Source of the DNA: Eledone cirrhosa
Taxonomy: Eukaryota
Direction of reading: 5' to 3'
Assembly: GCA_964016885.1 (NCBI GenBank)
Contig: OZ024742.1
Span: 7,874,001 to 7,938,000 of the forward strand
Length of the DNA: 64,000 nucleotides
Shown piece after piece: positions 6,993 through 7,423 of the stretch. Made by a program: the position numbers and the translations under genes. The notes under the pieces are model-generated. The model saw nothing but the letters and a program-made list of their open reading frames with translations, made no database searches and was not told where the DNA came from. How positions within the stretch are numbered: the stretch's first letter is position 1; each line of letters begins with the position of its first letter.

Positions 6993-7423
6993 AAAATAAA
7001 GTTAAATAAAAGTCAAATAGTGACTTAGGTCCGCTACTGTTTGAAGCGCTCAACCCGTGTGGGAGCTAGATAGATTTTGAGTTTATGTTGTTTGTATAGC
7101 AACACCTCAGTATGCAGGCTGGAGCACTCGACGAGGTGCGCAGGTTGGTTTGGTTACTCCGGAGTAGTGTAAAATAAAGTTAAATAAAAGTCAAAAGCCT
7201 GCATACTGAGGTGTTGGTATACAACCAACATAAACTCAAAATCTATCTAGCTCCCACACGGGTTGAGCGCTTCAAACAGTAGCGGACCTAAGTCACTATT
7301 TGACTTTTATTTAACTTTATTTTACACTACTCCGGAGTAACCAAACCAACCTGCGCACTTCGTCGAGTGCTCCAGCCTACATACTGAGGTGTTGGTATAC
7401 AACCAACATAAACTCAAAATCTA
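6993..7423. mobile_element. Head-to-head pair of circularly permuted 178-bp units (non-coding, probably non-autonomous)
   Basis: Left arm 6993-7195 starts and ends with AAAATAAAGTTAAATAAAAGTCAAA; right arm 7196-7423 is its reverse complement and repeats AGCCT.CATACTGAGG.. at 7196 and 7374 (period 178). Confidence 0.75.

Follow-up and report, generated by a model that had tools for sequence, protein, structure and literature searches.

Wrap-around, head-to-head copies of a 178-nt piece of a Penelope-like retrotransposon in Eledone cirrhosa

Background

Inverted, truncated arms with a 'tail' between two ends are standard products of Penelope-like retrotransposons (PLEs) (PMC8557442; PMC3846280), and work in vitro on a lizard PLE found initiation at two internal sites with extension of both strands (PMC11167929). 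The origin of the tandem and inverted repeats of PLEs is described as an open question (PMC8557442, PMC11167929). Members of the Hydra clade combine RWK, DKT, CxxC and CxH motifs with a hammerhead and TA targets (Craig et al. 2021, PMC8557442). Studies on the reverse transcriptase (RT) of R2 found that template jumping works best with 1-2 complementary nt (PMC8857657).

The insert described here, from the octopus Eledone cirrhosa, resembles the inverted 5'-truncated 'tail' inserts of PLEs (PMC8557442, PMC11167929, PMC3846280) in being head-to-head, in having two fixed 3' ends that match two internal RT starts and in lying in an AT-rich target. It differs from them in that the two ends of its family are 99 nt apart, where 30-40 nt is typical, and in that its arms hold sequence beyond their own start, reached via a back-junction common to both. 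The other close comparison is with the metazoan non-LTR retrozymes (PMC7229834; bioRxiv 10.64898/2026.07.22.740005), with which it shares a non-coding unit of ~180 nt, more-than-unit copies and a derivation from a PLE terminal region, its 178 nt falling within the retrozyme range of 150-450 nt. However, the unit has no type I hammerhead, each arm holds fewer than two units and the arms are head-to-head, whereas retrozymes consist of at least two full units head-to-tail; nor is there a multi-copy family, the permuted unit being present at two loci of independent origin. Without hammerhead, tandem array or family the insert is not a retrozyme. No description of ribozyme-free wrap-around inserts was found in the literature covered, subscription papers, Repbase and preprint supplements being outside its scope.

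Layout of the insert

The window (the whole stretch of DNA analysed, 64,000 nt of contig OZ024742.1) contains an insert of 432 bases made of two head-to-head copies of a 178-base piece, flanked by TA tracts of ~260 nt (left) and ~440 nt (right). Its features are listed below in window positions, with parent coordinates in which the A of the ATG is +1.

6730..6991, no strand: (TA)n target microsatellite, left flank
6992..7195, minus strand: arm A, parent -177 to +2 followed by -176 to -152; outer end at the first fixed 3' end of the family (-152), inner end at the unit boundary (-177)
7010..7026, minus strand: wrap-around junction of arm A, with 2-nt AT microhomology at 7018-7017
7048..7066, minus strand: GCTCCCAC..GGTTGAGC motif, first copy (parent -48 to -30), just 3' of the second fixed end
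7195..7196, no strand: central head-to-head joint (-177 to -102), which from the sequence is blunt and without microhomology
7196..7423, plus strand: arm B, parent -102 to +2 followed by -176 to -53; outer end at the second fixed 3' end of the family (-53)
7250..7268, plus strand: GCTCCCAC..GGTTGAGC motif, second copy
7290..7306, plus strand: wrap-around junction of arm B, the same as that of arm A, with AT at 7298-7299
7424..7867, no strand: (TA)n target microsatellite, right flank

Arm A (204 nt, 178 + 26) amounts to 1.15 units and arm B (228 nt, 178 + 50) to 1.28 units, and the two are 97% identical over 232 aligned nt. Matches between the arms within the window have E-values of 1e-104 to 1e-110, which excludes a chance origin of their likeness. 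Relative to the parent copy L033 there are 3 substitutions in arm A and 1 in arm B. A previous reading of the sequence by itself (the sequence-only reading) had described two head-to-head arms, each longer than a 178-nt unit, starting at different points of one circle and running out into TA; alignment confirmed both the arrangement and the common permutation, with a terminal redundancy of 26 and 50 nt, and the different starting points are explained by the two fixed 3' ends of the family. The hairpins that it had listed are all present, but GTTGGT/ACCAAC, intact in arm B, carries two substitutions in arm A. AAGTCA/TGACTT, which flanks the wrap-around junction of arm A, is a local hairpin in the insert only because it spans that junction, its strands lying 167 nt apart in the parent. 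The GCTCCCAC..GGTTGAGC motif is a candidate protein-binding element. One other locus of the family, L085, has an internal deletion from -177 to -103, almost the same points as those of the central joint in the window (-177/-102).

The parent element

A genome search with the unit gave 528 candidates, of which 40 were scored, and at all 29 other loci returned the sequence was unpermuted and led into an ATG and a frame opening with the motif RMRWKAF. The unit belongs to a larger element, a Hydra-type PLE of 4,135 nt, and represents its 5' non-coding stretch at parent positions -178 to -1, from 29 nt behind the hammerhead up to the ATG; it is 98.3% identical to the 5' UTR of young, ORF-bearing copies. 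The PLE origin proposed in the sequence-only reading was thus borne out, while its self-standing mini-element was not, since the unit is internal to a PLE with an ordinary hammerhead just upstream. The same reading had named an internal tandem repeat of a larger element as the contrary outcome; of this, the internal position within the PLE applies and the tandem arrangement does not. The hammerhead is absent from the insert because it lies 29 nt outside the copied piece.

Eight long parent stretches (L033-L040) were read. Copies with two hammerheads have a unit of ~4.13 kb from hammerhead to hammerhead (4,135 nt in L033), in which an RT frame is followed by a GIY-YIG-like domain out of frame behind it, as in 8/8 long copies; the first frame ends before the endonuclease in all eight, near a G-run in several. 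The frame starting at the ATG of the unit carries RMRWKAF (RWK) and HADKTNN (DKT in place of DKG), and YRDD, IVYG..LYIG (the C-terminal GIY-YIG-like domain), CKLC (CxxC) and CRH (CxH) were read by eye. The predicted hammerhead, at about -257 to -203 in the terminal repeat with a predicted cut at -207, comprises stem I, CUGAAGA, stem II, GAAA and a palindromic UAUAUA (folding z -3.0). Insertions of the parent sit in (TA)n. Pfam gave no match for the parent RT and a PDB sequence search with it nothing useful; 45 homologues were found, the named ones from Argonauta, Octopus and Elysia. By its motifs, and by a by-eye likeness of its N-terminal and RT motifs to Hydra-1_Obim, the parent fits the Hydra clade of PLEs, with which it shares RWK, DKT, the C-terminal GIY-YIG-like domain with CxxC and CxH, the hammerhead and (TA)n targets. 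It differs in its unit of 4,135 nt, Hydra elements usually being <3 kb (PMC8557442), and may differ in its linker, which reads YxCx5C in L033 where the Hydra clade has CxCx5C; the window insert has neither ORF nor hammerhead.

The window is dense in PLEs and contains more than a dozen hammerhead-like cores. Another family of Hydra type, likewise with a hammerhead (31958-33700 and 48498-54520), also has head-to-head arms; some 95 nt separate its two fixed 3' ends, and a predicted 9-bp stem ends at an ATG. This second family too has the GCTCCCAC..GGTTGAGC motif just 3' of its second end, an alignment of the two families scoring 77.5 against a shuffled maximum of 66. Four more Hydra-like RT/endonuclease stretches (17561-19729, 39444-41255, 43312-45384 and 49464-51999) show 38-49% to P0001. 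Just left of the insert is a broken LINE (2599-6497, minus strand) with AP endonuclease and RT frames recognised by Pfam, RT fragments also lie at 25400-26434 and 55301-56440, and a 44-bp tandem array about 97% identical (61294-64000) extends past the end of the window.

Ordinary inserts of the family

In the genome 684 exact copies terminate at -53 in TA. The first 90 of these were examined and 67 were two-armed, 7 of which ran off the locus; among the 60 complete two-armed copies the partner arm ended near -152 in 55 and at -53 in none. The normal insert of the parent family has two arms, head-to-head, that run into (TA)n at two fixed points. Inner arm ends were concentrated at parent -377 to -370 (46/153; about 2314-2320 in L033), on the TCATATGA palindrome, which is likely to be the transcription start.

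Variants in 55 two-armed inserts were common to both arms in 23 cases and private in 43. The rate of shared variants, 0.0033 per position, is about seven times that of shuffled pairs (mean 0.00046, maximum 0.0014 in 500 shuffles), and this excess indicates that both arms of an insert likely copy one template, though conversion between inverted arms could be a source of shared variants. A 5' end common to both arms was found in 25/67 two-armed copies, which was not taken as proof of one template because many of these ends fall on palindromes.

The hammerhead cut was considered as a hotspot for 5' ends and rejected. After removal by eye of internal deletions there were 9 true ends at -207 (30 of 31 hits looked at) and 6-7 at the control position -202 (30 of 39 looked at), so that cleavage in vivo is not shown by these counts. 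Both arms begin at the predicted cut (-207/-206) in L090, L103, L107, L110 and L115, some with short re-starts.

The wrap-around junction

What sets the window insert apart is that the ATG is joined back to -178 via a 2-nt AT match, and that this is so in both arms. Searches with exact and 2-mismatch patterns had suggested that the junction was unique to the window, which was overturned when a wider census recovered a second locus, L247 (C1:197.49 Mb), belonging to an older subfamily; a degenerate pattern run on the 3.0-Gb genome matches these two loci only. L247 has the same junction in both arms, its second arm ending near -27 and not -53; its identity is 97.7% with an older copy and 89.1% with the window unit, and in a rough tree it groups with the older copies (starred clade). 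As the two loci are nearest to different parent subfamilies (89% alike), the junction arose twice independently and did not spread. The genome-wide search called for in the sequence-only reading upheld the permutation, but as two independent loci and not as a dispersed element. With 13 random junctions the chance of such an exact recurrence is 2-24%, according to how much microhomology is assumed.

A census covered all 56 loci with an exact match to -56..-31 and a further 40 from a 2-mismatch search (for which 100 of 160 hits were listed). Wrap-arounds of various unit sizes were found in 16 of these 96 loci. Their donors lie between -156 and -534 and their acceptors between -11 and +477, and most have 0-2 nt of microhomology; one more locus flagged by the junction script, L234, was dropped as a false positive. 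The same junction was present in both arms at 4 of the 16 (the window, L247, L211 and L242), and in every arm of these four parent sequence upstream of the unit was absent. At L220 one acceptor (+72) is combined with two donors, -163 with 10 untemplated nt and -173. Contigs of a public run contain the L220 joint at -163 and a further joint (-6 to -141); the window junction is not among the joints listed from public contigs aligned to the parent, a partial set that is no evidence on the point. In L004, L218 and L237 the wrap-around units, of about 490-750 nt, include the hammerhead, and these are candidate proto-retrozymes.

That the arrangement arose as a DNA-level duplication, a satellite seed or an assembly artefact is highly improbable. 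A position in long TA tracts and a sequence taken from the assembly speak for it; against it are the four private substitutions of the arms, the equivalent locus in another subfamily and a sister junction present in public contigs. Local duplication cannot yield the insert since ordinary short inserts do not contain -52..+2. TRF lists no 178-nt array, and satellite DNA was rejected.

No ribozyme match in the unit

The failure of the sequence-only reading to fit a hammerhead core on either strand was confirmed by a scan of the doubled unit, in which the CUGAnGA...GAAA core is absent from both strands, with no GAAA and one 1-mismatch CUGAnGA. That reading had suggested another ribozyme or processing route. 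A retrozyme-like family of mini-elements cutting themselves by an unrecognised ribozyme would account for a PLE-derived unit of retrozyme size with a precise and recurrent junction, but the unit is nearly identical to a plain 5' UTR of ORF-bearing copies, no family exists, the other wrap-arounds use many different ends and the RNA around it is no more stably folded than shuffled sequences (z -0.72). No ribozyme in Rfam matched the window up to E 10, and with three parent loci added the only matches were to miRNAs and were driven by microsatellites. We consider this explanation very unlikely.

A proposed template jump on a linear RNA

The best explanation of the permutation is a small end-jumped or circular RNA template, and to this extent the proposal of the sequence-only reading was supported. 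The family was found in none of the RNA runs listed. The linear reading, to which we give an even chance, is that the insert was written by the parent RT from one short linear RNA fragment, with a jump from its 5' end to its 3' end. The RT-endonuclease would nick both strands of the TA tract, and two cDNAs would be initiated inside one fragment of about -177 to +1. Each cDNA would reach the 5' end of the fragment, jump onto the 3' end via the 2-nt AT match and continue past its own start, while the ends of the fragment would be held together by a predicted TGACTT/AAGTCA stem. Arm A would stop on its second arrival at the 5' end and arm B after about 103 nt; a blunt joint would then link the cDNAs, and a ribozyme would not be required. 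As PLE initiation is internal there is unused RNA sequence 3' of the start, and a jump to it from the 5' end would give a permuted copy.

Three observations favour a linear fragment. The -152 arm ends no more than 1 nt from the unit boundary at each of the two 178-nt loci (p about 0.001 for stops spread uniformly round a circle); L220 combines one acceptor with two donors and untemplated bases; and the microhomology of 0-2 nt at most junctions is in the range that the R2 RT prefers. The end of the unit at the parent ATG also fits. End-to-end jumping by the R2 RT likewise involves 0-2 nt of microhomology and occasional untemplated bases (PMC8857657), but in the window the jump would go onto the unused 3' part of the same RNA, which is possible only because PLE initiation is internal and which for PLEs we infer from sequence. 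The stem pairs with a probability of 0.73-0.97 when the unit is folded alone, and it is 7-8 bp long in the older subfamily, but in a longer RNA context the probability is only 0.02-0.10; covariation in it was looked for and none was found, and in the second Hydra-like family a stem is by eye not at the same place. Position -177 was also considered as a hotspot of 5' ends or processing and was rejected, with 2 true ends in 15 pattern hits, one of them the window locus.

A fairly unlikely alternative is a covalently closed RNA circle of 178 nt, formed from a PLE transcript trimmed to the stem-closed domain and ligated without a ribozyme (e.g. by tRNA ligase), round which each RT would roll slightly more than once. 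An identical junction in both arms would follow automatically, the same junction was formed in two subfamilies and lies at the foot of the stem joining the two ends, retrozyme RNAs are circularised by RtcB (PMC7229834) and more-than-unit copying of PLE circles has been proposed (PMC4209133). However, the stopping point of both -152 arms is the junction, and a circle would have no end there; the two donors for one acceptor at L220 are not obtainable from a closed circle; and the partner arm in L004, L219, L229 and L239 continues through the donor point with no jump. A back-spliced or intron circle was rejected, as splice signals (AG/GT or AT/AC) at the unit ends fit in none of three registers on either strand.

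The remaining alternative, which we hold to be unlikely, is a lost tandem source, in which the template was transcribed from a previous tandem copy that had no ORF. That copy would have been a non-autonomous mini-element of short life, now lost, polymorphic or unassembled, its junction formed once by an RT skip or a deletion from the downstream repeat to the ATG. Such a skip of the ORF and a wrap-around give the same sequence. The wrap-around of 214 nt (-193..+21) at L211 (C3:353378563-353381588) has four junctions at identical positions, and in each arm the first junction has the same two private changes, which the second lacks; the private letters occur in 0/77 and 0/70 ordinary copies. The same difference between junction copies in both arms points to a non-identical dimer as template and not one fragment, so that L211 was probably copied from a pre-existing dimer, and suggests re-mobilisation of a tandem dimer. 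A single internal deletion common to both arms at L092 also favours such a source. Against it, the window junction occurs at two loci only, each nearest to a different parent subfamily, a search of the genome for the L211 junction found no other locus, and a source transcript should let arms extend upstream of -177, which 0 do.

Implications

The wrap-arounds are a new variety of a known PLE insertion product, with a geometry that is real and largely explained. The window insert itself is likely a dead-end by-product, and the locus is probably without function. The genomes of the family's copies give evidence that the two internal RT starts are both used within a single insert, each by one arm and on a template common to the two, and that an RT at the 5' end of a short RNA can wrap round to the 3' part of that RNA. 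The wrap-around inserts also bound the minimal template (about -156 to -11) and point to a conserved motif, which makes the mechanism testable in the existing in vitro PLE assay, and they provide a path by which repeats of retrozyme type could arise from the terminal regions of PLEs.

A doubtful but larger possibility is that the 178-nt stem-closed domain with both RT starts is a defined small RNA without a ribozyme, either linear or circular, round which the PLE RT copies repeatedly, the resulting tandems being transcribed and moved again as L211 suggests. If so, the 16 wrap-arounds would show retrozymes and PLE mini-elements at the first step of their birth, and the three hammerhead-containing loci would be proto-retrozymes.
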